The notes: generated by a model not told the origin, from the letters alone. A DNA stretch of 55,239 nucleotides from a virus (IMGVR_UViG_3300033076_000726:1-55239); one strand, 5' to 3'. Positions 1-55,239 are shown, counted from the first letter of the stretch. Numbers and translations are program-made.

Positions 1-240
1 ACTATAACACCAACAATTACTCCTACAATTACAATTACACCAAGTGTAACTGTTACTGTTACGCCTACACCTACAGACGTAGCGTTTACATCGACTTCAA
101 CCGTAACACCAACAACAACTATTACTAGCACTCCAACTATTACACCTACTAATACTATTACCCCAACAAATACTATTACCCCAACTGTAAGTATCACACC
201 AACTATAACCCCTACGGTAACAGTAACGCCAACAACGACT
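1..240 (+). repeat. Thr/Pro-rich coding repeat (TPTIT/TPTNT), mucin-like
   Basis: Direct translation of frame 1; Thr at roughly every second residue. Confidence 0.9.
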
Positions 241-1848
241 AATAGTAATGGTTTATTGGTTAATTTAGATAGTGGTAATTTATTATCATATCCAACTTCA
301 GGAAGTACTTGGTCGGATTTAATTGGTGTAAACAATAGTGCAACACTAACTAATACACCAACTTATTCATCAAATTATAATGGTATATTAAATTTTAATG
401 ATTCATCGTTAGAATATGGTGTGATAAATAATATAGGTAATTTATCTAATTGGACTGTTGAAGTATGGTTTAGGTTAACCACTTCATTAACAGGTAAAGT
501 CACCTCAATAGTATCTAACGTATATAATGGTTCCGTTTTAAATTTTAGTATTGGTACAAATAATCAACCATTTAATGCAAATTTAGCTGTTGGATTTTTT
601 GATGGTGCGTGGAGAACAAATACGGGATTTGTACCTGCAACAAATGTGTGGTATCAAGTGGTCGGTACATATGATGGGTCAACAATTAGACAATATGTTA
701 ATGGTAGTTTATCGGGAGGAACATTAAACTATACAGGAACACCAACTTCAGGAGGTGATATTCGTTTAATGAGAAGATGGGATGAAACTTTAACTGCAAG
801 TAATTTTACTAATGGTGATTTGGCAATTGTTAAAATATATAATAGAGCCATTTCCGGAACCGAAGTTTTACAAAATTACAATGATAACTATACAAGATTT
901 ATTGACCCAACACCTACACCTTCTGTAACAGTAACATCTACAGCAACAGTTACCCCAACTATTACACCAACAAACACAATTACACCTACTAATAGTGTAA
1001 CACCAACAAACACAATTACACCTAGTATAACACCAACTAATAGTGTGACGCCAACTATTACACCAACCGCGTCAATTACACCCACCATAACAGTTACACC
1101 AACAATAACTGTAACACCCACAATTACACCTACAGTAACTAAATCTCCTTCAGTTGGTGGATATTCTAATACTGCGGAAATTTACTTTGACCCAGGTAAT
1201 TCATCATCATATCCCGGTAGTGGAACTGCATTAACTAATATAGGGACTATAGGAAATGTGTCAGGAACAAATGGAACATTAAATGGTGTTGTATATGATG
1301 GTGCAACTGCAAGTGGTGTGTTTAATTTTGATGGTGGTACTGATTATATTTCATTTCTAACACATAATCTTGGAAGTACAATTACAACAACCGCTTGGGT
1401 TTACCCAAGAACGGAATATAGTATTAACTGTTTAATGTCAAATGCTTCTGCAAATACGAACACCAATGGTTTTAAAATGTGTTGGAATGGATGGAACACC
1501 ACAAATCTTAATATGAATTTTGAGGCGGGTAATGGTAGTTCGGGTGGAACTGCAACAACTGCAAATAGTACGATGGTTATGAGTCAATGGCAACATATTG
1601 CGTATGTTTTTGATAAAACAAATCAAACCATTAAATTTTATAGAAATGGAACTGAAATTGCAACAAGCAATGGAGTAACACCGGTTGCAAATATTGGAAC
1701 AAACCAAAGTTGGTGGATTGGTGGAATTGGTGGTGGATTTTATAATATGAATGCAAATATGGGTCAATTTAGAATTTATAAATCACTAAGAAGTGGTGCC
1801 GATATTTTAGCGGAATATAACGGAACAAAAAGTAGATACGGATTATAA
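1..1848 (+). CDS. 5'-truncated virion/fibre protein: Thr/Pro-rich (TPTIT) tracts alternating with two LamG/concanavalin A-like domains
   Basis: Frame 1 is open from base 1 (TITPTITPTITITPSVT...), so the track start at 256 (TTG) is not the true start. LamG signatures: LNFNDSSLEY...WTVEVWF...WYQVVGTYDG...RQYVNG...VKIYNRAIS and FNFDGG...WQHIAYVFD...KFYRNG. Confidence 0.75.
   Translation, partial: TITPTITPTITITPSVTVTVTPTPTDVAFTSTSTVTPTTTITSTPTITPTNTITPTNTITPTVSITPTITPTVTVTPTTTNSNGLLVNLDSGNLLSYPTSGSTWSDLIGVNNSATLTNTPTYSSNYNGILNFNDSSLEYGVINNIGNLSNWTVEVWFRLTTSLTGKVTSIVSNVYNGSVLNFSIGTNNQPFNANLAVGFFDGAWRTNTGFVPATNVWYQVVGTYDGSTIRQYVNGSLSGGTLNYTGTPTSGGDIRLMRRWDETLTASNFTNGDLAIVKIYNRAISGTEVLQNYNDNYTRFIDPTPTPSVTVTSTATVTPTITPTNTITPTNSVTPTNTITPSITPTNSVTPTITPTASITPTITVTPTITVTPTITPTVTKSPSVGGYSNTAEIYFDPGNSSSYPGSGTALTNIGTIGNVSGTNGTLNGVVYDGATASGVFNFDGGTDYISFLTHNLGSTITTTAWVYPRTEYSINCLMSNASANTNTNGFKMCWNGWNTTNLNMNFEAGNGSSGGTATTANSTMVMSQWQHIAYVFDKTNQTIKFYRNGTEIATSNGVTPVANIGTNQSWWIGGIGGGFYNMNANMGQFRIYKSLRSGADILAEYNGTKSRYGL
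907..1146 (+). repeat. Second Thr/Pro-rich coding repeat tract
   Basis: PTPTPSVTVTSTATVTPTITPTNTITPTNSVTPT... between the two LamG domains. Confidence 0.9.
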
Positions 1849-1887
1849 TTTTTCTGATATTCTATTTATCTAATCCGAATTTTTATG

Positions 1888-1895
1888 TATTTATA
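1888..1895 (+). promoter_or_regulatory. TATTTATA motif, candidate phage late promoter element
   Basis: The same TATTTAT core recurs in the gaps before 6469, 11760, 36029, 50060 and 54387. Confidence 0.5.
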
Positions 1896-1961
1896 GAAAG
1901 ACCTACATAGGTCGAATTAACCGTGGTATATACCACATTTTAGATTGAGGAAACCATATAT

Positions 1962-4900
1962 ATGGCACAAATAGTAAAACTGCGTAGGAGTAGTGTATCA
2001 GGTCAAAAACCCACTAACTCAAATTTACAATTAGGAGAATTAGCATTAAACACCACCGATGGTAAAGTATTTTTTGCCAAATCAGGTTCAAATGGTCCTA
2101 CAGTAGAAGAACTAATCTCAACAAACACGGTTAATACAGGTTCAGTTTCAATAAGTGGTAGTATGGACCTTATAGGTAATCAAATCATTACTGGTAGTAT
2201 AATTACCACAGGTTCAAATAAGTTAATAGGTAATACTCAATTAACTGGTTCATTAACAGTTTCAGGTTCCACAATACAAATTGGTAATAATACTTTATTT
2301 GGAACAACATTATTATCAGGTTCAATCACAATATCAGGGTCAAAAAGTGTCGGAATTCCAACCGTAAAAATATATGGTGACGTTGAACAGGATGGATACA
2401 CTAGATATCTCCCTGTAAACACAAATTTAAACACAACTATATCGGGTTCATATATTTTTGTTAGTGGTTCCACCGACGATTTATATTTTGCACAAAATGG
2501 TAAAGGTTATAATAACGTTACTCGTTTACGTTGGTTAGAAGGTAATTTATATACGGGTTTATTAAATGGTGGTAATATAACCGCAACAGTCGGTGGTACA
2601 ACTTTTAATGTGTCAGCTGGTAGTGGTATAGTTGTTAATCTTAATGCAAGTTTAACAGATAACCCATACCCAACTGTAAAATACGTTAATTGGGAATCAT
2701 TCACGGGACAAACATTAACTTATAGAACAACCAATATTCAAACATTTATTGGTATTGACGATAGTGGTCAAATAGTACAACAAACAGGCGCATTTAATGA
2801 TGGTCAATATAATAACATTATCACATTAGGTACGGTTATTCACCAAAATTTATCTACGGTAAACGCTTCTATAAATTACCCCAATGTTGCTTATGGTTAT
2901 AAACAAAGAACCTATGATTTTATAAAGGCATTTGGACCTTTAAAATTAAGTGGTTTAAATATTGTTCCAGTTGATACGTTAGGTTTGAATGTGGGTTCAG
3001 GTACCGCTTGGGCGGATGGTAGAAATTACCAAGTTGACCCTAGCAATCCAAGTTATATTACGGATTCTGGAACAGCGGTATCAAAAATATTTAGATATTA
3101 CCAAGTTTCGGGAACTACATTTGTGCAAGACACTAATAATGCATCAGGTTACACAACATTAGATGTTACACATTATAATGATAACGGTACATTAACAGCC
3201 GTTCCTGGTAATAATGTTAACAACTATGAATGGACAATCCAAAGAATATTTTGGTATCCAAATTCGGCAACAAAAGGTATAGTTGCATATTACGGTAATA
3301 GAACGTACACCTCATCAACTGAGGCAGCAGCTAACGTTCAATTTGAACCATTTGTTGAAGTTGAAAATACAAAACAAAATGCGGTTTATTTAGGTGCGAT
3401 TGCGGTTAGAAAAGATGCCGATTTTACCAACCCAAGTACATTCTTAGTTTTACCTGGTGGTGTGTTCCGTAATGTTGGTGGTTCAGGTGGTGGAGGTATA
3501 GTACCAACAAACCGTTTAGCGGATTTGGTGGATGTTTATGTTGCAAATGCGGTAAATGGAGATTTAATTTCATATAATGGAAATTCATTAAAATGGGAGC
3601 ATGGTAAATCGTTAACAGGTGAATATACAATTACCGGTTCGCTGAATGTAACCCAAGGATTGACAGGTTCAATTGATTATAGTAATTTAACCAATGTACC
3701 AACATTGGTTTCAGGTAGTGAACAAATTGTTGCGGATTTTACATTTACAACCGATACGATAACAAATACAGATGTAAACATTGTTGCAACAAGTGGTGAC
3801 ATTATTCTTAATGCCGATGGTAATGTTTACAAAGGTTCTGCAAGTGCGGGTAATGGTTTAGTTACTGACGGTTATTTAGACCTAATCATTGGTGACACCA
3901 CCATGATTAACACAGGAACGGGTCATAGTATCGCAGATAATCTTGGATACATCACCAGTTCATTTAACACTTTCACATCGTCATATAACACAGGTTCATT
4001 CACGGGTTCATTTATTGGTGATGGTTCAGGTTTATATAATGTACCTGCAAGTGGTATTACAGGATTAAATCTTTCCCAAATTGCAGATGGTTCCGCAACA
4101 GCATCTATTTCAAATACTGACGGTTTTAGAGTTAATACAAATTCTGAAATAACAGGTTCAATGTTTATTTCTGGACCATTAAATATTGGTGATATTCCAG
4201 TATATGGTGACCCACTAAATCCTGAAGTTGTTCATATACATAATTCAGGTAGTTATAATGGAATTGTTGCTTTAGGTAATAGTGATACATTCTATCAAAC
4301 ATACATTGCAAATACCAATAGCGGAAATGGTGCAAGTACCGATTTAATTATTGGTGCGGATAATGTTACAGATAATTCATATTATGTTGATTTAGGTATA
4401 AATTCAAGCACATATAACGCAGGATATGTTGGGCATGAAAATGATTCATACCTTTATGCCGCATCCGACGATTTATATATAGGTACAATTGGATTACTTG
4501 GTAATAGTTCTAATATATACCTTTTTACGAGTAATTCTTGGCAAAATCCACAAATTACTGTTAGTGGTTCAGGTCAAATTGGATTTAATTCACCAACAAT
4601 TAGTGATGGTTATCAATACGAATTTAGTGGTAGCATAAAAACGTTACACGAATTATCCGTTGGTGGAAGTGTAAGTGCGTCATATTTCACAGGTGCACAT
4701 ATTGGTGATGGTTCAGGTTTATATAACATACCTGCAAGTGGTGTAACCGGATTAGAATTAAATAAAATTGTTGATGGTTCTGTTAGTGCATCTATTTCTA
4801 ATGGTGCATTAAGAGTTAATAGTGATGTCTTTATTGGTGGCGTATTAACCGCAAGAGAATTACATACGGAATTAGTAACATCATCGGTTTTATACGAATC

Positions 4901-6395
4901 GGGTTCAACTAAATTTGGTAATTCATTAGATGATACACATACATTTAGCGGTTCAATTTTAGTTCATACTTTATTAGAAACAAATAGAATTTCACCTGTA
5001 AGTGGTGTTGATGTGACAATTGAATCATCAAATTTGAAAGTACCAAATGGAGGAATCTACACCGATTTCAATATTGAATCTAAGGGTACCATTAGTGCAA
5101 CATCTATAAGTGGTAACACAATAACAGGTTCTTTAATAAGTGGTTCATTTATTGGTGATGCAACTAATTTAATAAATGTTCCATTCCATATTAGTGGTTC
5201 AAACATTAGTGGTACAACTGTAGATAAAACATTTACAAAATTACAATTTGATGATAGTACGGGATTAAATGTTGACGAAACCGACCCAGGTACTGCGTTT
5301 ATATCAATTGGTTCACACTTTAAAGATATATTTGTTTCAGGTTCACCTGTATTAAGTGCAACTGGTTCAGATGCATTTGAAATTATTGGTTTAGGTGGAA
5401 TACACATTTCATCATCAACTGTTGATACGAATGGTAATGGATATGTTAAAGAATTAACATTTGATTTAACAGAAATTTCTTCATCATTAGACTATAGAAT
5501 CAATTCAATAAGTGTTGGTGGTGGTTCAGGTCTTAGTGATGGTGGATATGCAACATTAAACCAAACAAGTGCGGCAGCTACGTGGAGTTTTAATCACAAT
5601 TTAGGACAAAGATATCCAATTGTACAAGTGTATGATTCAAATGGTAAAGTAATGATACCATCTGAAGTAATAATGGTTGATAGTTCAACAACAACAATTA
5701 CATTCCCATCTGCACAAACAGGAAAGGCAGTTGCTTCATTAGGCACAGGTCCTGGTGGAATGACACAATTCTTTACATCTGCAACAACATGGTCATTACA
5801 ACATGATATGGGTGCGGATTACCCAATTGTAACAATTTATGATGTTAACAAAAACATCATAATGCCAGATAGAGTAACGTCTATTGATTCAAACAATATT
5901 GAAGTTGGATTTACAACCCCTGTTGCCGGTCATTTGAATGTTGCTAAGGGTGGACATATTATTAGTGGGTCAATTAACTTCTCAAATATTAGTACTGCGG
6001 GTAGTGGAATTGTTAGTAGTAGTATTCAAGTATATAACTATGGTTATGCAACAACAGGTTCTAACGCATTTAATGGTTCACAACTTATTAAAAACGCAAA
6101 GATTGATGCGAGATGTGTAACAGTATCAACAGGTACTTCACAAATATTCACAATGACAGGTTATGACGGAGCAAACATTGATTATGTTGTTAAGAGTGGT
6201 GGAAATATGAGAGCGGGGGTTATATCGGCGGTTTGGGATAACTACAATAGTAGTTTTACTGAAACATCCACGGCAGATTTAGGGAATACATCAAATGTTA
6301 CATTTACCGTTTCAAATGCGGGTGTTTTAAATGCGGTTGTAACATCAGGAACGTGGACAATTGAAGCAATGTATAGAGCCTTAGGGTGTTCTTAA
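1962..6395 (+). CDS. Large tail fibre/virion protein, 1477 aa
   Basis: N-terminus MAQIVKLRRSSVSGQKPT..LQLGELALNTTDGKVF resembles the phage major-tropism-determinant/hyaluronidase-type N-terminal anchor. It has two GDGSGLYN(V/I)PASG modules and two C-terminal W-x-x-x-H-(N/D)-(L/M)-G..YP.V..YD modules. Confidence 0.75.
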   Translation: MAQIVKLRRSSVSGQKPTNSNLQLGELALNTTDGKVFFAKSGSNGPTVEELISTNTVNTGSVSISGSMDLIGNQIITGSIITTGSNKLIGNTQLTGSLTVSGSTIQIGNNTLFGTTLLSGSITISGSKSVGIPTVKIYGDVEQDGYTRYLPVNTNLNTTISGSYIFVSGSTDDLYFAQNGKGYNNVTRLRWLEGNLYTGLLNGGNITATVGGTTFNVSAGSGIVVNLNASLTDNPYPTVKYVNWESFTGQTLTYRTTNIQTFIGIDDSGQIVQQTGAFNDGQYNNIITLGTVIHQNLSTVNASINYPNVAYGYKQRTYDFIKAFGPLKLSGLNIVPVDTLGLNVGSGTAWADGRNYQVDPSNPSYITDSGTAVSKIFRYYQVSGTTFVQDTNNASGYTTLDVTHYNDNGTLTAVPGNNVNNYEWTIQRIFWYPNSATKGIVAYYGNRTYTSSTEAAANVQFEPFVEVENTKQNAVYLGAIAVRKDADFTNPSTFLVLPGGVFRNVGGSGGGGIVPTNRLADLVDVYVANAVNGDLISYNGNSLKWEHGKSLTGEYTITGSLNVTQGLTGSIDYSNLTNVPTLVSGSEQIVADFTFTTDTITNTDVNIVATSGDIILNADGNVYKGSASAGNGLVTDGYLDLIIGDTTMINTGTGHSIADNLGYITSSFNTFTSSYNTGSFTGSFIGDGSGLYNVPASGITGLNLSQIADGSATASISNTDGFRVNTNSEITGSMFISGPLNIGDIPVYGDPLNPEVVHIHNSGSYNGIVALGNSDTFYQTYIANTNSGNGASTDLIIGADNVTDNSYYVDLGINSSTYNAGYVGHENDSYLYAASDDLYIGTIGLLGNSSNIYLFTSNSWQNPQITVSGSGQIGFNSPTISDGYQYEFSGSIKTLHELSVGGSVSASYFTGAHIGDGSGLYNIPASGVTGLELNKIVDGSVSASISNGALRVNSDVFIGGVLTARELHTELVTSSVLYESGSTKFGNSLDDTHTFSGSILVHTLLETNRISPVSGVDVTIESSNLKVPNGGIYTDFNIESKGTISATSISGNTITGSLISGSFIGDATNLINVPFHISGSNISGTTVDKTFTKLQFDDSTGLNVDETDPGTAFISIGSHFKDIFVSGSPVLSATGSDAFEIIGLGGIHISSSTVDTNGNGYVKELTFDLTEISSSLDYRINSISVGGGSGLSDGGYATLNQTSAAATWSFNHNLGQRYPIVQVYDSNGKVMIPSEVIMVDSSTTTITFPSAQTGKAVASLGTGPGGMTQFFTSATTWSLQHDMGADYPIVTIYDVNKNIIMPDRVTSIDSNNIEVGFTTPVAGHLNVAKGGHIISGSINFSNISTAGSGIVSSSIQVYNYGYATTGSNAFNGSQLIKNAKIDARCVTVSTGTSQIFTMTGYDGANIDYVVKSGGNMRAGVISAVWDNYNSSFTETSTADLGNTSNVTFTVSNAGVLNAVVTSGTWTIEAMYRALGCS

Positions 6396-6468: not shown

Positions 6469-9400
6469 ATGGCAAACGAATTTATAATTAAGAACGGACT
6501 TAAAGTGTCCGGCTCTGCGGAAATCGAACAAGATTTACGTGTAAGAGGAACCCTAACGGTTGACGAATTTCATGCGTCAATTACTACTGCATCAATACTA
6601 TATGAATCAGGTTCATCAATCTTTGGTAACTCCTCAGATGATACCCATCAATTCACAGGTAGTGTAAACATTACGGGTTCAATTACATTGAATGGTAGTG
6701 CAATTGGTACTGGTAAATTAGATGAAACAACATTTAATTCATATACCCAATCTCAAGTAATATTAGACGGTAATCAAAATTCGTCAATTACTAATTTAAC
6801 TACAAATTTTAATTCGTTTACGTCATCATTTAATTCAATTTCGAGTACCTTTGCAACAACTGGTTCTAATACGTTTAAAGGAGACCAATATATTAGTGGG
6901 TCACTTATTCCTACTCACAATAATGTTTTTGATTTAGGAACACCAACGTATCAATTTAGAGATTTATATTTATCATCAGCATCACTATATATTGATGGTA
7001 CAAAAGTTCTTGGTAGTACAACACAAGAATTACAAATTACAACAGATAATGGTCAATCTTTTAAAATTTTAGAAGATGGTACTGATACCATTACTTTACA
7101 ATCCGCTGACGGCGACATTCAATTAAAATCATCAGGTGGGGGTAATCTATTGTTAGACCCAACAACCGGTTTAATTGATGTAAGAGGAACATTACAATTA
7201 CAAGATGGTAATAAAATTAGAAGTTCAGGTGGAACTAAAGTTATTGTTGGCGATGATTTAGATGTTACTGGTTCAGTTAGATTAACTGGCGATTTAATAA
7301 TCAACGGAACATCATATTCTGCCGCAACATCAGGTACTTCAGGTACTAGTGGTACTTCAGGTTCGTCCGGAACAAGTGGAACTTCGGGTAGTTCAGGGTC
7401 TTCAGGGACTAGTGGAATATCCGGTTCTTCAGGAACCAGTGGAACGTCTGGTAGTGACGGTTCATCTGGAACTAGTGGTACTTCAGGTTCTAGTGGTTCA
7501 TCTGGAACTTCTGGTACGTCAGGAACTAGTGGTACGTCAGGAACATCTGGTAATTCAGGAAGTAGTGGAACGTCAGGTAGTTCAGGTTCATCAGGAACTA
7601 GCGGCACATCGGGTTCATCAGGAACTAGTGGTACATCAGGTACGTCCGGTTCAAGTGGATCTTCGGGAACAAGTGGTTCATCAGGTTCTTCAGGTACTAG
7701 CGGTACATCCGGTTCAAGTGGTTCATCAGGAACCTCAGGTTCTTCTGGTACTGCAGGTACGTCAGGAACAAGCGGAACATCCGGTTCCTCTGGAAGTAGT
7801 GGTACCGTAACAATGACAGGTGTACAAAATAATGGTCTTTTAACTTTAAATGGTTCTTCTCCTAATGTGACAGTTGAAGATAACTTAACATACGATGGTA
7901 CAACATTTAAAGTTAATTCAAATACAGAAATAACGGGTTCGTTAATAATAACAGACAATTTAATGGTTCTTGGTACATCTTCAATTGTTTATTCGACGGC
8001 GTCTTATTTGAATGTACAGAACAATTTTATATCCGTTAATGCGTCATCTCCCGCCGTTAGATATGGTGGATTAAACGTTTTTGACTCTGGGTCGAACACG
8101 ACTGCATCATTTTATTTTGATAGTTTAACAAACGATTGGGCATATGAATATAGTTCATCCACGGTGGATTATGCGGTGGCTTTATTTGGTCCTGAATTTA
8201 ACACAAAAGGAACCCCAACATATCTAACTGAAAATAAAATAACTAAAGCACACGGTCACCATCATTTACTTGATAGTAATATCACCGATACTGGTACATT
8301 AGTAACTATTGATTCTGATACCAATATTACAGGTACGTTAAGAATAACTTCAGATATTGTAATTAACGGTACGTCTTATTCTGCAGCAACATCGGGAACT
8401 AGTGGTACATCAGGAACTAGTGGTAGTTCAGGTACGAGTGGAAGTTCAGGTTCTTCAGGTACTAGCGGTAGTTCAGGTACTGGTGGTACTTCAGGAACTT
8501 CGGGGTCTAGTGGTTCTTCAGGAACAAGTGGTACTTCGGGTTCTAGTGGTTCATCTGGTACTTCAGGTTCTAGTGGTTCATCTGGAACTTCCGGTTCTTC
8601 TGGAAGTAGTGGTACTTCAGGAAGTAGTGGTAATTCAGGTTCTTCAGGTACTAGTGGTTCTTCAGGAAATTCGGGTTCTAGTGGAACATCTGGTTCTAGC
8701 GGTTCTTCAGGTACGTCACCTTCAGCGGCTGCGTATGTAGCGAAAGCTGGTGATACAATGACAGGAACTTTATTATTTACATCGGTGTATGGTAATGCTG
8801 GCGGTGATTATACAGGTATAACCACACCACCTTACAAAGTATCGGTTAGTAGTGGTTATTGGAGAATTCCACATATTAGTGCAGATTCAACCAATTCAGG
8901 GGTTTATAATTATGAAAGTGGTAAAAAAGTGTTTTGGGGAGAGCCAACCGATACAGGAGATTATCAATTTAGAGGTAGAACTTTAAAATGGGTTAATAGT
9001 TCTGGAACGGAATATCCTGTCATACATTCAGGTAATATTGGTTCATATGCTGTCACATCGGAAACGGATACATTACAAACCGTAACTAGTAGAGGAAATT
9101 CAACTTCCGCATCGTTAACGATGAGTTCAACAACACCATTTGAATTTACAGGAACCTCAAATACAGGTACATACAATAGAACCTCAATATATGTAAATCA
9201 AAATAATACTTCGGCAGATACTGCGAATGGTATTTTCATTGAAAGAGGTAGACTAACCGATAGTGGTTCTGCCGAGGTTAGACACTTTGTAATTGGTGCT
9301 AGAGGAGGTTCAATACAATGGAAAGTTGATGGTTCGGGTAATACAACCCAAGCCGGTACATTACAAGCATATGCAACAACCGTTAACGGACAATTTTTAG

Positions 9401-10917: not shown

Positions 10918-10922
10918 AATTT

Positions 10923-17154: not shown

Positions 17155-17164
17155 AAAATAGTTT

Positions 17165-37927: not shown

Positions 37928-38074
37928 ATGGCATCAAAGACAATTTACAAAAAAATTACTTTAGTCCAATCACAAACAAGAACACTTACTTTGTTAACGG
38001 ATGCAACTAAAAAACAAAAAGTAAACACAGTTGTAAGTAATTTTATTCAATATTTGAAGAACGCACACTCTTAA
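37928..38074 (+). CDS. Small 48 aa basic Thr/Lys-rich peptide (absent from ORF track)
   Basis: MASKTIYKKITLVQSQTRTLTLLTDATKKQKVNTVVSNFIQYLKNAHS; fills the gap 6 nt after the Hint gene. Confidence 0.6.
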   Translation: MASKTIYKKITLVQSQTRTLTLLTDATKKQKVNTVVSNFIQYLKNAHS

Positions 38075-38083
38075 TAGAATGTT

Positions 38084-44476: not shown

Positions 44477-44505
44477 TTGTTAATTTGAAGTATTTTTCAT
44501 ATATT
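44477..44505 (+). promoter_or_regulatory. Sigma70-like promoter TTGTTA-N17-TATATT, 7 nt before ATG
   Basis: Seen directly; recurrent architecture. Confidence 0.45.
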
Positions 44506-44512
44506 TTACATA

Positions 44513-47886: not shown

Positions 47887-50003
47887 TGGAATTTAACGAA
47901 GATGTATTTGTCATCGATTGTTGGTTAGACACAATTGAAAAAGAAAATACTTTAAAAGAACTAATAGTAAGTTTAAAGGAATTTAATTGTCCAATAATTT
48001 TGTGTGGTCACTATCCTGTTAATCCAAATGTACAAAAAATGGTTGATTACTATATCTACGATGGTAATAACGATATTTTGTTGGAAAAAGATTTTGAATT
48101 ATATGAAATTCAAAGTGATAGGTGGACGGATACTAATGATTATAAAATTGTAAACAGAAATAAATTTCATCATGATTATGCCATTTGGTTAACCATAAAG
48201 AACGCTTTTAATTTAGTTAAACAGTTAGGTAAAAAATATATTCATTTCTTAGAATATGATAATTTACCAAACACAACACAGTATCGACAATCGTTTCTTG
48301 AGTATATAAGACATCACGATGCTGTAATATATGAATACGACAGAGGTTCCACAAATCAAGAAAATCCATATTGTGCTGCATACATTTTCTCAATTAAGAC
48401 GGATGTTGCAATTGAAATGGTGAATTTAATCAATTCAAAAGAAGAATATTTTAAGAACAAACCCGATTCTTGGCAATTAGAAAAACAATTGTTCCAATCA
48501 ATTAAAAAAATAACCAATAACGTATTTGTGAGCAAATACATCCCAAACAATGAGGAATTGAATTTATTTGCTGCATGGAATAGAAACGGAATTTTAAGAA
48601 ATGGTGCAAGATTTCAAACATATCTTGGTTTTGATGGTGATGATACCTACATTCATTTCATATCAGGTTTTGATGGTAAACCAGCGGATAAAGATTATTT
48701 AGTTGAAATACGTTATAACAATGTTGGTAGATTTTTTAATATTCAAAAGGGTCAATATCATTTAGAAAGTGTGGGGAAATACATAGAAGGTGGAGTTGTT
48801 GAGGTTTTATATCAAGGAGTAAAAGTATTTTCCGAAACGTTAAACGAAGAAATAAAAAGATTAAATAAAGTCGAGAAAAAAACAGTATACAAAGACCAAA
48901 AGAACACCAAAGTTAATTTAAATTTTATTGATGGTCCATTTATTGAAATTTTGAACGACACCAATTCAAATTATCACGTTGAGTTTATTAACCCAAAAAA
49001 TGATAAGGTTGAATATGAGTTAAATATGAAGAGTAATCATTGGGCAAAATGTTCAATAAAATATTATGTTGAGTGGATTATTAAAGTAAAAGGTCTTGAT
49101 AATGATTATAAATTAGAATACAAGTTCAACCCAAAGAAACAAAAATTTCTTATTTCATTTGAAACAAAATCATTGGGAGACAACATCGCATATATGGGAT
49201 ATGTTGAGGAATTTAGAAAGAAACATAACTGTGAGGTTGTTTGTTCCACTTTCCATAATAAACTATTCCAAAATCAATATCCTAAAATACAATTTGTTGA
49301 ACCAGGTACTAGTGTGAATAACTTATATGGAATGTATAGGTTGGGAATGTTCTATAAAGAAAATAGAAACGGAATAGATTTTACATCTCACCCAACCGAC
49401 CCTAAGAAAGAACCATTAACTAAAATGGCTTCCGATATTTTAGGTTTAGACTATGTTGAAGTTAGACCTAAACTTAAAAAATTAGGTAAGGATGTTAAAA
49501 AAAGGGTTTGTATTGGAATACATTCAACAGCACAATGTAAGTATTGGAATAATCCAAACGGATGGCAAGACATTACCAATTATTTGTTAGATAAAGGGTA
49601 TGAGGTTAGATTATTATCCAAAGAAGAGGATGGTTTTATGGGGAATAAAACTCCAATAGGTGTCACCAAACAACCCGAAGGTCCATTGGATGATATTATT
49701 AAAATTTTACAAGAATCGGAACTTTTTATAGGTGTTAGTAGTGGACTAAGTTGGGTATCTTGGGCATGTGGAACCCCAACAATTTTAATATCTGGTTTTA
49801 CCGACGTATATACCGAACCATTCGAGGGTATTAGTCGAATAATAAATAAAGATGTTTGTAATAGTTGTTGGAATAATTACGATTTTGATATGAGTGATTG
49901 GAATTGGTGTCCAGTACATAAAAACACAGATAGACAGTTTGAATGTTCTAAAAATATCACCTCACAAGACGTAATAAAAGAGATTGATAAGTTATTGTTC
50001 TAA
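47886..50003 (+). CDS. Multidomain protein with C-terminal Aah/TibC-like (autotransporter O-heptosyltransferase, GT9-like) domain
   Basis: KSLGDNIA, HSTAQCKYWNNPNGW, FIGVSSGLSWVSWA, ISGFT, and the iron-finger cysteines CNSC...WC P.HK.T.RQFEC typical of TibC/Aah. Confidence 0.8.
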   Translation: MEFNEDVFVIDCWLDTIEKENTLKELIVSLKEFNCPIILCGHYPVNPNVQKMVDYYIYDGNNDILLEKDFELYEIQSDRWTDTNDYKIVNRNKFHHDYAIWLTIKNAFNLVKQLGKKYIHFLEYDNLPNTTQYRQSFLEYIRHHDAVIYEYDRGSTNQENPYCAAYIFSIKTDVAIEMVNLINSKEEYFKNKPDSWQLEKQLFQSIKKITNNVFVSKYIPNNEELNLFAAWNRNGILRNGARFQTYLGFDGDDTYIHFISGFDGKPADKDYLVEIRYNNVGRFFNIQKGQYHLESVGKYIEGGVVEVLYQGVKVFSETLNEEIKRLNKVEKKTVYKDQKNTKVNLNFIDGPFIEILNDTNSNYHVEFINPKNDKVEYELNMKSNHWAKCSIKYYVEWIIKVKGLDNDYKLEYKFNPKKQKFLISFETKSLGDNIAYMGYVEEFRKKHNCEVVCSTFHNKLFQNQYPKIQFVEPGTSVNNLYGMYRLGMFYKENRNGIDFTSHPTDPKKEPLTKMASDILGLDYVEVRPKLKKLGKDVKKRVCIGIHSTAQCKYWNNPNGWQDITNYLLDKGYEVRLLSKEEDGFMGNKTPIGVTKQPEGPLDDIIKILQESELFIGVSSGLSWVSWACGTPTILISGFTDVYTEPFEGISRIINKDVCNSCWNNYDFDMSDWNWCPVHKNTDRQFECSKNITSQDVIKEIDKLLF

Positions 50004-50059: not shown

Positions 50060-53000
50060 ATGAATATTTTTGACGCCATAATATCGGGTTCACTCGAAGT
50101 TGCAGGAGATAGTCACATTGCGGGAGATTTAACGGTTGACGGTATTATAAATGCCGTAATTAGTGGTACGACATCAAATGCAATATCCGCATCACATGCT
50201 GCTAACTACACATTAACCACATCGTTTAACGATTTTACATCATCATATAACACCGGTTCATTTACCGGTAGTTTTAGAGGTGATGGTAATGGTTTATATA
50301 ACATACCTGCAAGTGGTGTAACAGGATTACAATTAAATAAGATTTCAGACGGAAATACCAACGCACAAATTTATGATGGTGTTGGATTAAGGATAAACGA
50401 TGATACGTTTGTTACCGGTTCAATTTATGTGACGGGTGACGTTGTTATTAACGGTACATCATATAACGCCGCAACATCCGGAACAAGTGGTACGTCAGGA
50501 ACATCTGGTAGTTCAGGAAGTAGTGGAACATCAGGTTCATCTGGTTCTAGTGGAACTTCAGGTACGAGCGGTAGTTCGGGTTCATCGGGCACATCGGGTT
50601 CTAGTGGTAGTTCAGGTACATCAGGGTCTAGCGGTTCTTCAGGTACAAGCGGAACATCTGGAACTTCGGGGTCAAGCGGTTCTTCAGGAACAAGTGGTTC
50701 TTCGGGTTCTAGTGGTAGTTCAGGTACATCTGGTACTTCAGGTTCTAGCGGTAGTTCAGGTACATCAGGTACGAGTGGAAGCTCAGGGTCTAGCGGAACC
50801 GCAGGTACTAGCGGCACTTCAGGAAGTGATGGTTCTTCAGGTACTTCAGGAACATCAGGTAGTTCAGGGTCTAGTGGTACATCCGGTTCTTCGGGTACAA
50901 GTGGCACATCAGGTAGTTCAGGAAGTAGTGGAACAAGTGGAACGTCAGGTTCATCCGGTTCTAGTGGAACTTCAGGAACCAGTGGTTCATCTGGTAGTAG
51001 TGGTACCTCAGGTTCTAGTGGAACTTCTGGAACAAGTGGAACGTCGGGTTCTAGTGGTTCTTCGGGAACGTCAGGTTCTAGTGGTTCATCGGGAACAAGT
51101 GGTAGCTCAGGGTCTAGCGGAACATCTGGAACTTCAGGAACATCCGGGTCAAGCGGTTCTTCAGGTACCGTAACCATGACAGGAACACAAGATAACGGAC
51201 TTCTTACTTTAGATGGAAGTTCACCAAATGTAACTGTCGAATCAAATTTAACATTTGATGGTAACAATTTAAAATTAGTAGGAAATCAATATATAACAGG
51301 TTCATTATGGGTAACTCAAGACTTAACTGTATTGGGTTCATCATCAATAACATATGTAACATCATCACAATTAAATGTTTTAACATCTTACATATCAGTA
51401 AACGTAAATGAACCATCTGAAAGATTTGGAGGTATTAAAGTATACGATAGCGGTAGTTCAACTGCAACAGCGTCTTTATCGTGGGATAGTTTAAATAATA
51501 GATGGGTTTATCAAAATGCTAGTGGTTCTAACTATAACGGTGCGATGTTAATAATGGGTCCGAGAAATACGGGTTCATTAGGTGAAGAACAAACATTAAC
51601 CAGCGGTAAAATTCCAAAATCAATTGGTGGTGATCACATTGGAGATTCGATAATTTCAGAAAGTGGTGGTGCAATTGGTGTGTCGGGTAGTTTATCAGTA
51701 ACGGGTTCATTATATATTAACGGTAGTTCATATACGGCAGCAACATCAGGTACTAGTGGAACTTCGGGTACAAGCGGAACTTCCGGTACAAGTGGTACTT
51801 CAGGTAGTTCCGGCTCTTCAGGAACCAGTGGTACGTCAGGTAGTTCGGGTTCATCTGGTACATCCGGTAGTTCAGGAAGTAGTGGAAGTTCCGGTACAAG
51901 TGGTACATCAGGTAGTTCAGGTTCTTCAGGAACAAGTGGAACTTCAGGTAGCTCGGGCTCTTCAGGAACCAGTGGTACGTCAGGTAGTTCAGGTTCATCA
52001 GGAACATCGGGAACTAGTGGCTCTTCAGGAAGTAGTGGAACTGCGGGTACATCTGGTAGTTCTGGAAGTAATGGTAGTTCAGGTACATCTGGTAGTTCGG
52101 GAAGTAGTGGAACAAGTGGTAGTTCAGGTTCTAGTGGTACGTCTGGTACAAGCGGAACTTCAGGTTCTAGTGGTACATCAGGTAGTTCGGGGTCTAGTGG
52201 TTCTTCAGGAACAAGTGGAACTTCAGGTTCTAGCGGTTCATCTGGTACATCAGGGTCTAGTGGAAGTTCAGGAACAAGTGGTTCATCAGGTTCTTCTGGT
52301 AGCTCAGGAACATCAGGGATAAATGGTACTTCAGGTACAAGTGGAACGTCAGGTTCTTCAGGTTCTAGTGGTAGTTCAGGTACGTCACCATCAGCGGCAT
52401 TATATGTTGCAAAGGCAGGTGATGAAACAATAACGGGACAAAAAACATTCCCTAGTGAAATTGCTAATAGACCTATTTTATCAGGAGGTTTCATTTCCGC
52501 AGCAACAGGTGATTTAGACGTTGATTTATGGGGTATTTCTGAAGATTATTATCCATCACACGCAACTGCAGCAAATGCATGGGGACTAAGATGGTACGGA
52601 ACAGGTAATGAATTTAGATTTGTTGGTGGAGGTACTAATAGGGTTATTATGGACATGGATAACGGAGATATAACCTCAACAGGTACTATCACCGCCCCAA
52701 CCTTCTCAGGTGCTTTATCGGGTAATGCATCAACAGCAACAAGTGCAAATCAAATCGATGGAGTTGATTTTGTTAATACAAATTCAAATAACGGATTGAA
52801 TGCCAATAGTGTAGATGCTAACGTAGTTGGTTATGTAACAAATATTGATGGTTCATCAGGTAATCCATCTGGAAATGCATCAGACGGTGCGTTGTATGGC
52901 CAAGCATATAATTCAAGTTGGCAACATCAATTTTACGGTGATTATCGTTCAGGTCAAGTTTGGGTAAGAGGTAAAAATAGTGGAACATGGACAAGTTGGA

Positions 53001-53209
53001 AAAAATTATCCACAAAATATTCAACAACTTTCAGTAACGTATCGTCAGTATCAGTTACACATAATTTAGGTAGTAAAGATGTTGCGGTATTCGTTTATGA
53101 TAGTAGTGATAATATGTTCTGGCCATCATCAATTGTAACAACATCGGTGAATGTTGTTGATATAACTTTTACAACATCGAGAACAGGAAGGGTTGTAATT
53201 ATCGGTTAA
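50060..53209 (+). CDS. Fibre protein with two (Gly-Ser/Thr-Ser)n tracts, a knob-like domain and a C-terminal HNLG module
   Basis: Tracts at about 50477-51166 and 51746-52387. WQHQFYGDYRSGQVWVRGKNSGTWTSWKKL resembles pyocin/fibre knob ends. VTHNLGSKDVAVFVYD resembles the C-terminal modules of 1962..6395. Confidence 0.75.
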   Translation: MNIFDAIISGSLEVAGDSHIAGDLTVDGIINAVISGTTSNAISASHAANYTLTTSFNDFTSSYNTGSFTGSFRGDGNGLYNIPASGVTGLQLNKISDGNTNAQIYDGVGLRINDDTFVTGSIYVTGDVVINGTSYNAATSGTSGTSGTSGSSGSSGTSGSSGSSGTSGTSGSSGSSGTSGSSGSSGTSGSSGSSGTSGTSGTSGSSGSSGTSGSSGSSGSSGTSGTSGSSGSSGTSGTSGSSGSSGTAGTSGTSGSDGSSGTSGTSGSSGSSGTSGSSGTSGTSGSSGSSGTSGTSGSSGSSGTSGTSGSSGSSGTSGSSGTSGTSGTSGSSGSSGTSGSSGSSGTSGSSGSSGTSGTSGTSGSSGSSGTVTMTGTQDNGLLTLDGSSPNVTVESNLTFDGNNLKLVGNQYITGSLWVTQDLTVLGSSSITYVTSSQLNVLTSYISVNVNEPSERFGGIKVYDSGSSTATASLSWDSLNNRWVYQNASGSNYNGAMLIMGPRNTGSLGEEQTLTSGKIPKSIGGDHIGDSIISESGGAIGVSGSLSVTGSLYINGSSYTAATSGTSGTSGTSGTSGTSGTSGSSGSSGTSGTSGSSGSSGTSGSSGSSGSSGTSGTSGSSGSSGTSGTSGSSGSSGTSGTSGSSGSSGTSGTSGSSGSSGTAGTSGSSGSNGSSGTSGSSGSSGTSGSSGSSGTSGTSGTSGSSGTSGSSGSSGSSGTSGTSGSSGSSGTSGSSGSSGTSGSSGSSGSSGTSGINGTSGTSGTSGSSGSSGSSGTSPSAALYVAKAGDETITGQKTFPSEIANRPILSGGFISAATGDLDVDLWGISEDYYPSHATAANAWGLRWYGTGNEFRFVGGGTNRVIMDMDNGDITSTGTITAPTFSGALSGNASTATSANQIDGVDFVNTNSNNGLNANSVDANVVGYVTNIDGSSGNPSGNASDGALYGQAYNSSWQHQFYGDYRSGQVWVRGKNSGTWTSWKKLSTKYSTTFSNVSSVSVTHNLGSKDVAVFVYDSSDNMFWPSSIVTTSVNVVDITFTTSRTGRVVIIG
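50477..51166 (+). repeat. (SGT/SGS)n coding tract, about 230 aa
   Basis: Direct translation. Confidence 0.95.
51746..52387 (+). repeat. (SGT/SGS)n coding tract, about 214 aa
   Basis: Direct translation. Confidence 0.95.
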
Positions 53210-53221
53210 TTTTGGTATATT
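53193..53221 (+). promoter_or_regulatory. Sigma70-like promoter TTGTAA-N17-TATATT, 6 nt before ATG
   Basis: Seen directly; recurrent architecture. Confidence 0.45.
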
Positions 53222-53227
53222 TTATAT

Positions 53228-54370
53228 ATGATAAGAGAAAACGTTGTTCAAAGTGGGTCATTAACTGTAGGAAGTATAAAAGGTCAGTTAATTGTACCCG
53301 CAGGTCCAAGAAGTGGTCGACCATCTACACCTGATACAGGTTCATTGTATCTTGAAACGTCTTCAAGTGGTAGTGTCATTATGGTTTATAATGGAATTAA
53401 CAATATTGATAACGGTTGGGAACCTATTGGTAGTCAAGATGATTCAAGAATTGCTTTCAAATATAGACAAATTATTAGTACCTCATATACTGCCGGTGGT
53501 TATAAAGATGCATCACCATGGAAAACAGTACAAAGAACAATCAACGCAACAGACCAAACAGTTAGTGTGGGTGATTTGATGGATTATCCATCATCATACT
53601 CATCAGGTGGATGTAGTCCAACTAAATTATTTATGTGGTCAGTTAATACAGATAACTTATGGAAATCGGCAACGGAAGTTCACGGTACATATACAACGGG
53701 AATCGACATGGTTAATGAAACAGCATATGCTCACCAATCAAAATGGGATTTGGCAAATGCTAGAGACCAAATGGGAACATTGTTTCAAGAAGGTTTATTT
53801 GCGTGGATATTTGGTGGTTCGGTGGCTGCGGTTGAGAAGTTTAATTTTACAAACGAAACAATGTATTCCAACTATTACCCAAATGCCGCACCATACATTA
53901 CGATGACATCATCAATCACCAGTTCATTAGGTTGTGCGGGATTTTCGGACGAAAATTATGGTTACGGTTATGGTTCGGAAAGTGGTATGAAGTTATTTTT
54001 TGCAACAGATACCATATCTGTTAAACAGCAATGGGGTGCTAGTGGACAACAAAAAGGTATTAGTTCAAAAGTAGGTAAAGGATATGCCGGTAATGAGGGG
54101 ACATATAATGGTGGATACAATTTAAGAAGATGGGATTATGCTACGGAATCAAATATTGGTAATGTGGCAAAACCTTACCCTAATTGTGGAGAAGAAAATT
54201 TTACAATGGGACAAGACCATCAATATATGATAGGTAACTATGATGGCACACAAAATAACGGTAGTTGGAAATTCTACTACGCAACCGATAGCGGTTCGTC
54301 AAGCGTTTCCGGTTTAAATCCAACAACACACGGTGGGATGTCATCAGGTCATTGTGGATGGAGAGCATAG
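53228..54370 (+). CDS. Putative virion protein, beta-propeller/Kelch-like repeats
   Basis: N-terminal anchor-like RPSTPDTGSLYLET; YTAGGYK..SPWK, IFGG..VEKFNF, YAGNEG repeats; paralog follows. Confidence 0.55.
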   Translation: MIRENVVQSGSLTVGSIKGQLIVPAGPRSGRPSTPDTGSLYLETSSSGSVIMVYNGINNIDNGWEPIGSQDDSRIAFKYRQIISTSYTAGGYKDASPWKTVQRTINATDQTVSVGDLMDYPSSYSSGGCSPTKLFMWSVNTDNLWKSATEVHGTYTTGIDMVNETAYAHQSKWDLANARDQMGTLFQEGLFAWIFGGSVAAVEKFNFTNETMYSNYYPNAAPYITMTSSITSSLGCAGFSDENYGYGYGSESGMKLFFATDTISVKQQWGASGQQKGISSKVGKGYAGNEGTYNGGYNLRRWDYATESNIGNVAKPYPNCGEENFTMGQDHQYMIGNYDGTQNNGSWKFYYATDSGSSSVSGLNPTTHGGMSSGHCGWRA

Positions 54371-54386
54371 AAAATATTTATAAAAT

Positions 54387-55239
54387 ATGATATACGAAAA
54401 TATGGAAGTAAGTGGGTCTTTAAGAGCGGCACAAATTATTGCCGGTCCGAAGAACACAAGAGCAAATAGACCAACAAGTCCAGCAATTGGGTCTTTATTT
54501 TTAGAAACTTCACCTAGTGGAAGTTATATGATGGTATACACAGCAATATCAAATAATGACGATGGATGGGAAAGAATATCATCACAACAAAGTGCAAACT
54601 TGGCCTTTAAATATCGTCAAATTATTGCCTATGGATATTTGGCTGGAGGTTATAAAGATTCGTCACCATGGAAAAATGTACATAAAACGGTGGCAGCAAC
54701 AGACCAAACTTCACACGTTGGTCAATTGTTAGATTATCCCGTAAGTTACACTAAGGGTGCGTGTAGTAAAACAATATTATTTGTGTTTTCATCTAATAGT
54801 GATAATGCATGGAAAGGTCCAGATACTGTTCATGGAACATACACCTCGGCCGTAAACATGTCAAATGATACTGGATATGCCAATCAAACTAAATTCAATT
54901 TATTTAATGCTAGATCGGATTTGGCTGTTATGTTTAAAGAAACTGAGATGGCTTATATTGTTGCAGGAGGTACCACATCCGTTGAGAAATTTAATCTTGC
55001 AAATGAAACAAACATAACAGGATTTAATTTAACCTCTTTTAACTCTAGTGAAGGTGCGTCTGCGTTTTCAGATGAGAACAACGGTTATGCATATAATTCG
55101 GGTAATGGTGTAAAATTCTCATTTTCCACCGAAACATTCTCAAACGGTTCGGTATGGGGTGCACATGGACAACAAAAAGGTATTAGTTCAAAAGTAGGTA
55201 AAGGATATGCGGGTAATGAAGGTTCATACAATGGTGGAT
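54387..55239 (+). CDS. 3'-truncated paralog of 53228..54370 (absent from ORF track)
   Basis: MIYENMEVSGSLRAAQ...RPTSPAIGSLFLETS...AFKYRQII..GYLAGGYKDSSPWK...GQQKGISSKVGKGYAGNEG; frame open to the window end. Confidence 0.8.
   Translation, partial: MIYENMEVSGSLRAAQIIAGPKNTRANRPTSPAIGSLFLETSPSGSYMMVYTAISNNDDGWERISSQQSANLAFKYRQIIAYGYLAGGYKDSSPWKNVHKTVAATDQTSHVGQLLDYPVSYTKGACSKTILFVFSSNSDNAWKGPDTVHGTYTSAVNMSNDTGYANQTKFNLFNARSDLAVMFKETEMAYIVAGGTTSVEKFNLANETNITGFNLTSFNSSEGASAFSDENNGYAYNSGNGVKFSFSTETFSNGSVWGAHGQQKGISSKVGKGYAGNEGSYNGG

Follow-up and report, generated by a model that had tools for sequence, protein, structure and literature searches.

The stretch of DNA analysed here, called the window throughout (IMGVR_UViG_3300033076_000726:1-55239; 55,239 nucleotides), forms the first 55,239 bases of a 119,239-base IMG/VR virus record that is classed as linear. 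The record is rated 36% complete by CheckV, and a whole genome of ~300 kb is therefore expected. The window contains 41 tightly packed genes, all of which lie on the + strand, and a tRNA search of the window returned none. PHROG matches to tail-fibre and virion-structural families, together with ESM Atlas relatives that are classed as Uroviricota, place the source among the tailed phages. The DNA comes from an uncultured, tailed jumbo phage whose tail-fibre module is fused to a ~54-kb glycan-building region. GC content is 27–32% across the enzyme genes and reaches 42% in the repeat genes. Two elements of the window are central to this report: three fibre genes with long collagen-like repeats, and a gene cassette for a bacterial autotransporter heptosyltransferase (BAHT), which probably glycosylates these repeats.

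The collagen-like fibre genes are located at 6469–9840 (fibre 1; 1,123 amino acids (aa); Pfam PF01391, E 1.4e-35), 11760–15974 (fibre 2; 1,404 aa; PF01391, E 9.1e-85) and 50060–53209 (fibre 3; 1,049 aa; PF01391, E 2.7e-61), all on the + strand. They contain seven unbroken Gly-X-Y runs of 108–333 residues each: nucleotides (nt) 7333–7809 and 8395–8718 in fibre 1 (159 and 108 residues), nt 12372–13370, 14121–14507 and 14850–15389 in fibre 2 (333, 129 and 180 residues), and nt 50480–51172 and 51749–52387 in fibre 3 (231 and 213 residues). An earlier note on this DNA had counted ~1,340 residues of Gly-Ser/Thr-Ser repeats; the recount gives 1,353 residues and adds the collagen-type triplet nature of the repeat, which had been missed. 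G-(S/T)-S accounts for 418 of the 451 triplets (93%), the Y position is Ser in 94% of them, and the X position is Ser or Thr, about half each. Pro occurs at 2 of the 902 X/Y positions, and the stabilising proline/hydroxyproline or charged residues of collagen are not present. The repeat DNA is only 62–81% alike and uses all six Ser, four Thr and four Gly codons, which indicates that the periodicity is maintained at the protein level and is not a recent product of slippage. If triple helices form, the runs would give rods 31–95 nm long (0.286 nm per residue). A set of three fibre monomers offers ~900 Ser/Thr acceptors. The C-terminal domain of fibre 2 matches a PHROG tail fiber protein (E 6.6e-12), and the three proteins are counted as virion parts because they match PHROG tail-fibre and virion-structural families.

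Fibre 3 is directly downstream of the gene for a 705-aa two-domain transferase (47886–50003, +), which has a GT-A-like N-terminus (~residues 1–230; GT, glycosyltransferase) and a BAHT domain (residues 361–703, nt 48966–49994). Pfam alone showed this protein as a weak GT9 match. The TibC/Aah family is represented by a curated equivalog, TIGR04414, with a cut-off of 200 bits, and the BAHT domain reaches 292.1 bits (E 5.6e-87; NCBIfam). In a comparison with solved structures, residues 361–703 match TibC (PDB 4rap) with an E value of 5e-54, while the heptosyltransferases of lipopolysaccharide appear only at E 0.12. TibC uses Asp110 as the catalytic base and Thr226, Lys230, Arg286 and Trp305 to bind the heptose, Pro300 is involved in stereoselectivity, and Cys339, 342, 358 and 370 form an iron finger (PMC4358343). 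The alignment, which was read by hand, places an 'LGD' of the 705-aa protein on L108-G109-D110 of TibC, so that the catalytic Asp110 is conserved, as are Thr226, Lys230 and Trp305. All four iron-finger cysteines align with Cys in 'CNSCW...WCPVHKNTDRQFEC', and the stereoselectivity determinant Pro300 is replaced by Ser, as in AAH. The suggestion of a TibC/Aah-type enzyme is thus borne out, as the curated cut-off, the conserved Asp and the iron-finger Cys mark a bona fide BAHT. Judged by its sequence, the 705-aa protein is a BAHT-family protein O-glycosyltransferase, and BAHT is the only family known to add sugars to the serines of a repetitive protein in the bacterial cytoplasm. No autotransporter is present as a BAHT substrate. 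The N-terminal 360 residues are a phage-specific addition; in the AlphaFold model (pLDDT 78), residues 1 to ~230 weakly match GT-A transferases (E ~1e-4, TM 0.35/0.5), and the GT-A assignment of this part of the model is tentative.

The BAHT cassette begins with a gene (44513–47233, +) for a 906-aa fusion of a GT4 glycosyltransferase (PF00534, E 1.3e-12) and an FkbM methyltransferase (PF05050, E 4.5e-16; TIGR01444, 84 bits versus 37.7), which is followed by the gene for a TylF-type methyltransferase of 218 aa (47230–47886, +; PF13578, E 1.4e-7). This composition, with GT4, GT-A and methyltransferases, suggests from family membership an extended, O-methylated glycan that would be started by BAHT. 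A scan of IMG/VR with the BAHT domain yielded at least 80 viral loci, and the counts below are among the 80 listed. A homologue of the GT4-FkbM protein is encoded beside BAHT in 36 of the 80 loci, and the TylF-type methyltransferase gene is kept between the two in 16. The cassette in relatives is often preceded by a radical SAM enzyme of the type encoded at 43433, an SGNH-like protein of the type encoded at 39276 or small 2OG oxygenases. Many distant phages (L110–L112, L125, L130, L135–L137, L141 and L144) carry two tandem BAHT paralogues that are ~30% identical to one another. In several of them the pair lies ahead of G-S/T-S collagen genes of great length, which in L111 reach 333 consecutive triplets.

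The pairing of the BAHT gene with the repeat was followed within the clade of the window, outside it and in the reverse direction. The clade sample consists of the 25 records, including that of the window, that carry a conserved gene set around two GT7 glycosyltransferases (the GT7 core, see below). BAHT is present in five of these records; all five have G-S/T-S repeats, and the BAHT gene is directly upstream of the collagen-like gene in each. A sixth record with repeats ends at the contig edge where BAHT would lie. The remaining 19, one of which is a 213.6-kb record rated 100% complete, have neither BAHT nor the G-S/T-S repeat. Fisher tests of the clade association (p 1e-4) and, more generally, against the internal controls (p 1e-4 to 3e-3) are descriptive and ignore relatedness. 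In one record (G006, locus L036), the fibre orthologue is 48–71% identical outside the repeats and has no collagen run; BAHT is lacking as well and the GT7 core is intact. A relative with a G-x-Q collagen also has no BAHT.

Among the 80 listed loci, 28 have a same-strand G-(S/T)-(S/T) run in the gene that follows BAHT, beginning 1.35–3.5 kb downstream of where the BAHT domain starts, and two further loci have such a run 7–8 kb upstream. When the BAHT domain is at least 50% identical to that of the window (24 loci), 17 loci have the downstream run, two have an upstream run, four end too early and one has none. The non-repeat N-termini of the fibres differ among these loci, resembling fibre 3, 1 or 2 of the window or a 1,477-aa structural protein that is also encoded in the window. 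Eleven loci whose enzyme is 39–43% identical (L110–112, L123, L125, L128 and L130–134) keep the BAHT-repeat pairing and show no other homology to the window. BAHT-less loci that were fetched with GT7a, the first GT7 enzyme, or with the fibre middle domain have no such run, with the exceptions of L014 and L020, which are cut just short. Four BAHT loci without downstream G-S/T-S repeats (L104–L106 and L122) have T/Q/A/Y-rich or Q/P/A-rich collagen-like genes 4–6 kb upstream.

For the reciprocal sample, 44 viral records were picked solely for ten consecutive G-[ST]-[ST]-type triplets. TIGR04414 matches 15 of the 44 (14 above the cut-off). Four of the 44 have a completeness of at least 90%, and three of these have a match; most of the other records are small fragments. 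The argument for an association rests on the recurrence of the adjacency across deep divergence and changing fibre domains more than on the Fisher p values. The earlier note had proposed co-occurrence of SG-repeat fibres with the island enzymes as a check; it holds for the TibC-like gene within the clade, outside the clade and in the reciprocal sample, and fails for the GT7 core.

The GT7 core begins at 20164–24650 (+; Pfam, PDB and fold matches) with genes for a GT-A/GT8-like protein, a TylF-type methyltransferase (MT24) and two GT7 (beta4GalT-like) enzymes, GT7a and GT7b, each of which carries a LamG domain. These are followed by a GT2-like protein (24643–25482, +; PF13704, E 1.7e-5, below the cut-off), which is kept at 40–54% identity in all relatives. 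The GT8-like protein (20164–20892) has an ESM Atlas score of 0.96 with TM 0.6–0.75. Together with one N-twitch radical SAM enzyme, the core is conserved at 40–67% identity in ~25 viral contigs. GT7a matches human beta4GalT7 in a PDB sequence search (E 1.2e-26), and the Pfam domains Glyco_transf_7N and 7C score 69.8 and 61.4 bits against cut-offs of 27 and 23. The motifs DVD (H73-D74-V-D76) and WGWGxEDDD (W134...D142) are invariant in 14 GT7 sequences; we take DxD and WGWGxEDD(D/E) to be the motifs of the GT7 beta-1,4-galactosyltransferase family. The AlphaFold model of GT7a (pLDDT 85) superposes on beta4GalT7 and T1 (Foldseek E 2e-13, root-mean-square deviation 2.0–3.5 Å) over ~156 of the ~240 residues of the catalytic domain, after which a LamG/pentraxin-like domain follows at residues 172–332. 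The two are true beta4GalT-type enzymes. GT7-family enzymes extend sugars, rather than starting chains on protein.

To identify an acceptor of the core, the 25 core records were searched for G-S/T-S repeats, any Pfam collagen and T-P-T tracts, none of which tracks the core. The genes for MT24, the GT2-like protein, GT7a, GT7b and the radical SAM enzyme are present in 19 of 24 related records without the G-S/T-S repeat, and 17 of the 25 core records, the complete 213.6-kb record among them, have no Pfam Collagen match. A large structural-type gene (1,000–1,900 aa, 20–33% Ser+Thr) immediately precedes the core in each of the six relatives that were examined, a position that fits a virion target and proves nothing. 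T-P-T-x-T-P-T matches number 126 in one relative (G003, IMGVR_UViG_3300042566_000706, ~38–45 kb) versus six in the window, and very long Thr-Pro-rich tracts also occur at 0–17 kb of G006.

About nine glycosyltransferase-like domains had been proposed for the island, a number that is roughly correct. Pfam and PDB matches support the two GT7 enzymes, the GT2-like protein, GT4 and the TibC-like domain, the ESM Atlas supports the GT8-like protein, and the GT-A N-terminus of the 705-aa protein is weak by fold. The other three are thin: DUF6734 (a weak Pfam match and a DxD), the protein encoded at 39902–40603 (only a DxD) and the central part of the 906-aa protein (an Atlas lead below threshold).

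Downstream of the core start, six radical SAM paralogues are encoded in tandem (25484–33120, +; Pfam, NF033640 and CxxxCxxC), with a twitch/SPASM-like Cys domain at the N-terminus. The N_Twi_rSAM family (NF033640, cut-off 170 bits) matches the first paralogue (25484–26848) with 377 bits and the fourth (29116–30606) with 311.5 bits; the two tested of the three short paralogues, 26848–27864 (69.9 bits) and 43433–44476 (44.1 bits), are below the cut-off. The proposed number of eight radical SAM enzymes stands, with seven identified by Pfam and that at 43433–44476 by alignment with CxxxCxxC, which is invariant across all eight window paralogues. The fourth type follows GT7b in all relatives. In searches of the PDB, the only similarity of the first paralogue is to the auxiliary-cluster domain of BtrN (E 0.012), and the fourth has no relative at E up to 1. 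N_Twi_rSAM is a named family without a characterised reaction, eight paralogues in one locus are unusual, and our literature search found no paper on N-terminal twitch radical SAM enzymes in viruses.

The radical SAM genes are followed by that for a NodU/CmcH-type carbamoyltransferase (33142–34809, +; PF02543, E 1.5e-54, 186.2 bits; PF16861, E 1.8e-63, 213.6 bits), which is below the NodU equivalog itself (164 bits versus 1000). The next two genes (34966–35741, +) encode a P-loop kinase of 145 aa (PF01583, E 4.9e-20) and an HxGH nucleotidyltransferase-like protein of 113 aa (weak nucleotidyltransferase matches). The former had been called an APS kinase; its best score of 71.7 bits is below the NCBIfam cut-offs of at least 127 and covers profile positions 4–114 of 152, so that the protein is only APS-kinase-like, with P-loop, 'DGDDLR' and 'SFVSPY' motifs present. 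The pair may activate a sugar or another group. No sulfotransferase is recognised in the window, and a BAHT locus elsewhere (L116) has a sulfotransferase-like neighbour. The pair is conserved (58% and 66% identity) in an unrelated BAHT-carrying viral contig (L087:1235-2000), and the N-terminal 377 residues of the next protein in the window, a 630-aa protein with C-terminal Hint/intein-like domains (36029–37921, +; Pfam AXH, Hom_end_hint and Intein_splicing, E 1e-11 to 5e-6), recur in L087 beside the pair and BAHT.

The remaining tailoring block (38084–44476, +; Pfam and alignment) encodes two SGNH-like proteins, three 2OG-Fe(II) oxygenases, two GT-A-like proteins with DxD and two short radical SAM enzymes (41358–42401 and 43433–44476). 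Among the functions first proposed for the island, the three methyltransferase domains, the carbamoyltransferase and the three oxygenases, which are of the 2OG type, are all confirmed by Pfam; the SGNH assignment retains a GDSF motif and a second SGNH-like paralogue, and its Pfam match is weak and sub-threshold. The 2OG oxygenases have no significant solved relative (best E 0.27 to 1), and a role for them as collagen prolyl or lysyl hydroxylases is unlikely, as the repeats hold almost no Pro or Lys. About 13–14 island enzymes (24643–44476) end in K/N-x-(I/L)-(I/L/F/V), as in ...DKIVLI, ...NKILI, ...EKNII, ...NKNII and ...NKNLI. Many of these tails have stop codons that overlap or abut the next start codon, so that the tail may in part reflect translation of the A/T-rich initiation region of the following gene; however, it also precedes a 36-nt gap (44476 to 44513).

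Other proteins of the fibre module surround the collagen-like genes. A 5'-truncated structural protein with two LamG (Laminin_G_3) domains is encoded at 1–1848 (+; PF13385, E 1.2e-34; PHROG 'virion structural protein', E 2.3e-24), and in the translation of this open reading frame the proposed Thr/Pro tracts are real, as TITPT-type linkers between the LamG domains. It is followed by the 1,477-aa fibre-like structural protein without collagen repeats (1962–6395, +; 23% Ser+Thr; PHROG virion structural matches on the C-terminal repeats). Two small LamG proteins of 252 and 261 aa (10159–11708, +; PF13385, E 3.7e-19 and 1.3e-8) lie between fibres 1 and 2, and a group of fibre-associated genes, which is syntenic in the closest relative, encodes a 392-aa protein, LamG263, a Gly_rich_2 protein (555 aa) and a 129-aa protein (15976–20014, +; Pfam and PHROGs). 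Four proteins of the module (10159–10917, 15976–17154, 17165–17956 and 1–1848) end in a similar ...(S/G)R(R/Y/F)(F/G)(G/S/A)(K/I/L) tail (RRFGK, GRFSI, QRFAI and SRYGL). They carry LamG or share PHROG 24074 with LamG proteins, and the common C-terminal tail may be a shared docking end. Downstream of fibre 3 are two paralogous structural-type proteins of 380 and 369 aa, the second of which runs to 55496 (53228–55239 in the window, +; PHROG 1417, E 9.7e-47). Both have fibre-like N-termini and end in ...SSG(H/T)CGWRA; PHROG 1417 has no assigned function.

Pfam scans of the 20 kb beyond the window extend the island, which spans ~20 to 74 kb of the 119-kb contig. This stretch first encodes a 2OG oxygenase, a further radical SAM enzyme and a methyltransferase. 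On the opposite strand are GT2, an NAD-dependent epimerase/dehydratase (4,6-dehydratase-type), a DegT-type aminotransferase and more methyltransferases, as well as TOD1/MUCI70-type transferase and GT1-type genes that reach ~74 kb, and one membrane protein, DUF401, lies in this part of the glycan region. In place of the 30-kb island flanked by fibres that had been described, the locus is therefore a ~54-kb region that encloses the third fibre and the two structural paralogues. No replication or DNA-modification genes are recognised within the window, in line with the original reading; past ~74 kb, the contig encodes a canonical thymidylate synthase, a DNA methyltransferase and an endolysin-like gene. 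A megablast search with 24 kb of the island and tblastn searches with GT7a and the fibre middle domain found no match among GenBank phages, and the clade is known only from metagenomes. PMC12619734 describes 'Moraphages' as large aquatic Bacteroidota phages with four core glycosyltransferase families, and the clade of this window may or may not belong to them.

We propose an explanation with three modules, which as a composite we hold with moderate confidence. In the first module, the GT4/FkbM protein (906 aa), the TylF-type methyltransferase and the GT-A/BAHT protein (705 aa) would act in the host cytoplasm on the collagen-like fibres of the phage. The BAHT domain would add the first sugar to serines of the G-(S/T)-S triplets, most likely to the almost invariant Y-position Ser; with the same donor as TibC, it would be a heptose. 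The fused GT-A and GT4 domains would then extend the glycan, and the two methyltransferases would O-methylate it. For this module on its own, that the BAHT cassette glycosylates the G-(S/T)-S collagen-like fibres, comparison across phages gives good support, our confidence is higher, and we regard it as probable. The second module, behind a large fibre gene and independent of collagen, would comprise the GT8-like protein, the methyltransferase, GT2, the two GT7-LamG beta-1,4-transferases and the N-twitch radical SAM enzyme. In the third, the variable radical SAM enzymes, the 2OG oxygenases, the carbamoyltransferase, SGNH esterases, the kinase, the epimerase and DegT would diversify the glycans. 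None of the island proteins encoded in the window contains a stretch hydrophobic enough for a transmembrane segment, and Pfam recognises no flippase, polymerase or phosphoglycosyl transferase in the window or the next 20 kb; soluble proteins without lipid-carrier machinery fit a cytoplasmic, protein-directed chemistry. A glycocalyx of this kind may serve in shielding, mimicry or adhesion.

Several observations weigh against this explanation. The sugar-binding Arg286 of TibC is replaced by Ile in the 705-aa protein, and the 119-kb contig has no SIS/GmhA match for a heptose donor pathway, for which the search returned a sub-threshold nucleotidyltransferase match at 35418–35537; the sugar donor may therefore differ from ADP-heptose. 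The repeat is collagen-like only by its periodicity, and the triple helix is putative. About 45 of the 80 listed BAHT loci, several of them cut short, have no collagen repeat within 8 kb, which indicates that the family has other contexts, with glycosyltransferases, 2OG oxygenases or a sulfotransferase-like gene. Many of the positive loci are from related phages, and the counts therefore overstate the number of independent events. Finally, the second and third modules are linked to the virion by gene position only.

The earlier note had read the whole island as one system for the SG-repeat fibres, in which, on the ~54-kb extent given above, all genes would build a single, heavily tailored, proteoglycan-like glycan. 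All genes of the window are co-oriented and tightly packed between fibre genes, the closest relative retains the entire arrangement at 80–98% identity, and a more distant one (G008, 63–70% identity) keeps the order of GT7 core, ~29 kb, BAHT and collagen fibre. The conserved core, however, occurs without SG repeats in 19 of the 24 related records, including a complete genome with no Pfam Collagen, other phages that lack the GT7 core carry the BAHT cassette as well, and the tailoring genes vary between relatives. An island independent of SG-repeat genes was the refuting condition named in that note, and for the core it holds; the interpretation stands in part. As the core is found without collagen repeats, the island is not one fibre-dedicated pathway, and we consider it unlikely that all of it serves the G-(S/T)-S fibres. 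The comparison with proteoglycans survives as an analogy: the GT7 enzymes are of the true beta4GalT type, and no xylosyltransferase or other core-initiating enzyme is recognised.

Even with the proposed role of the BAHT cassette, the remaining enzymes could instead remodel host envelope glycans or make a free or lipid-linked polysaccharide during infection and leave the virion untouched, for example to block superinfection or change the cell surface. Phage glycosyltransferases that change the host serotype are well known, as cited in PMC12619734, and both the sugar-nucleotide operon (epimerase/dehydratase and DegT) and the membrane protein DUF401 beyond the window would suit such a role, as would a GT7 core that tracks no S/T-rich acceptor. 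Against this, all window enzymes look soluble and the carrier-linked machinery named above is not recognised, the core is directly behind a large fibre/structural-type gene in the six relatives, and both GT7 enzymes carry LamG domains that resemble those of the fibre-associated proteins. We judge this division of labour to be rather less likely still.

The target of the BAHT-like enzyme could also be a host protein or another phage protein, with its adjacency to the repeat reflecting shared late expression only. More than half of the listed viral loci have no nearby collagen repeat, and the known BAHT substrates are beta-helical autotransporters and not collagen (PMC4358343). Within the clade, however, the enzyme comes and goes with the G-S/T-S repeat, the G-x-Q collagen is without BAHT, and the adjacency persists at 40% enzyme identity while other fibre domains change, all of which makes such a target improbable. 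We give a similarly small chance to the possibility that side chains of peptides or proteins, and not sugars, are the direct substrates of the eight twitch/SPASM-type radical SAM enzymes, the 2OG oxygenases and the ATP-grasp/Hint protein, in fibre cross-linking or in a chemistry like that of ribosomally synthesized and post-translationally modified peptides. Most characterised SPASM enzymes mature peptides, NCBIfam shows weak matches to sactipeptide and other peptide maturases, and hundreds of Ser/Thr are available on the fibres; yet the one PDB similarity of the auxiliary-cluster domain is to BtrN, an aminocyclitol oxidiser, the conserved radical SAM gene always comes after that of GT7b in relatives, and no precursor-peptide gene turned up, although no search aimed at such genes was made. 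It is very improbable that a part of the island (the kinase, nucleotidyltransferase, radical SAM enzymes, 2OG oxygenases and some glycosyltransferases) hypermodifies the phage DNA, for even though some phage glycosyltransferases are known to assemble glycans on DNA (PMC12619734, citing Pyle et al. 2024), one 2OG oxygenase weakly matches the DNA-oxygenase family PF09859 (E 5e-4) and the contig covers only 36% of the genome, the thymidylate synthase homologue (79372–80418) is a canonical ThyA (E 3e-80; catalytic Cys and dUMP-specifying Asn present), no hydroxymethylase, DNA kinase or pyrophosphorylase type is recognised in the window or beyond, and the GT7, BAHT, NodU and TylF/FkbM families act on glycans or proteins.

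Within the explanation that we prefer, in which the BAHT cassette glycosylates the fibres, a further step may be considered by analogy. Dense O-glycosylation could be a structural requirement, such that the Pro-free repeat would form a stable triple-helical rod only after its Y-position serines have received sugars from the BAHT cassette. Under glycosylation-dependent folding, BAHT would be an obligatory factor of fibre assembly, and the N-twitch radical SAM, 2OG and carbamoyl enzymes would tailor the sugars on the protein into a strain-specific coat; we regard this extension as doubtful.

If fibre glycosylation by the BAHT cassette is true, it would represent a second, widespread route of virion self-glycosylation in tailed phages besides that of the mycobacteriophages, and an enzyme family so far known only from bacterial virulence adhesins would act on a new kind of acceptor, the Gly/Ser/Thr triplet repeat. 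It would bear on the protease resistance of fibres, on host recognition, on the stability of a Pro-free collagen helix and on the purpose of the many radical SAM and sugar genes that large aquatic phages carry. Being small and soluble, the enzyme and its presumed substrate are directly testable in E. coli. The negative result also matters, in that the bulk of the large island is not assignable to the fibres on present evidence, and not every gene in the region need be glycan-related. Our literature search found no paper that links a BAHT-family heptosyltransferase with collagen-like phage proteins.

Several known systems share parts of this arrangement. Mimivirus, a eukaryotic giant virus, coats its long fibrils by its own glycan machinery, in which a 4,6-dehydratase and a DegT-type aminotransferase serve to make amino-deoxy sugars. 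It has collagen-like genes and modifies collagen via Lys hydroxylation and glucosylation; its enzymes differ from those of the window, and we know of no BAHT in it. BclA of the Bacillus anthracis exosporium and the cuticle collagen of Riftia carry O-glycans on the Y-position hydroxy residue of Gly-X-Thr repeats, and in Riftia-type peptides Thr-galactose stabilises the triple helix. The repeats of BclA and Riftia contain proline, their enzymes are unrelated to BAHT and neither system is viral. Virion glycosylation by phage-encoded glycosyltransferases is known in mycobacteriophages, as cited in PMC12619734. The window differs from these phages in its presumed target, which is the collagen-like fibres, in its key enzyme, a BAHT, and in a gene set of ~50 kb. 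The mycobacteriophage glycans, in the 2023 work of Freeman et al., are reportedly carried on the C-termini of capsid and tail-tube subunits and made by small enzyme sets.

The closest likeness is to TibC-TibA and Aah-AIDA-I of E. coli (PDB 4RAP/4RB4; PMC4358343), with which the window enzyme shares the family, the catalytic Asp, three of the four sugar-binding residues and the four iron-finger Cys. Known members of the BAHT family form a dodecameric ring and transfer heptose from ADP-heptose to Ser of an autotransporter passenger. In both settings, a soluble cytoplasmic enzyme is encoded beside a Ser-rich repetitive protein, here the presumed acceptor, with many sites for hyperglycosylation. 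In contrast to TibC and Aah, the presumed acceptor in the window is a Pro-free collagen-like phage repeat and not a beta-helical autotransporter passenger, and the enzyme is fused to an extra N-terminal region of 360 aa, has Arg286 replaced and belongs to a cassette with GT4 and methyltransferases. BAHT protein O-glycosylation and virion glycosylation are known in kind; this case differs in its acceptor class, fusion partner, cassette and viral setting.

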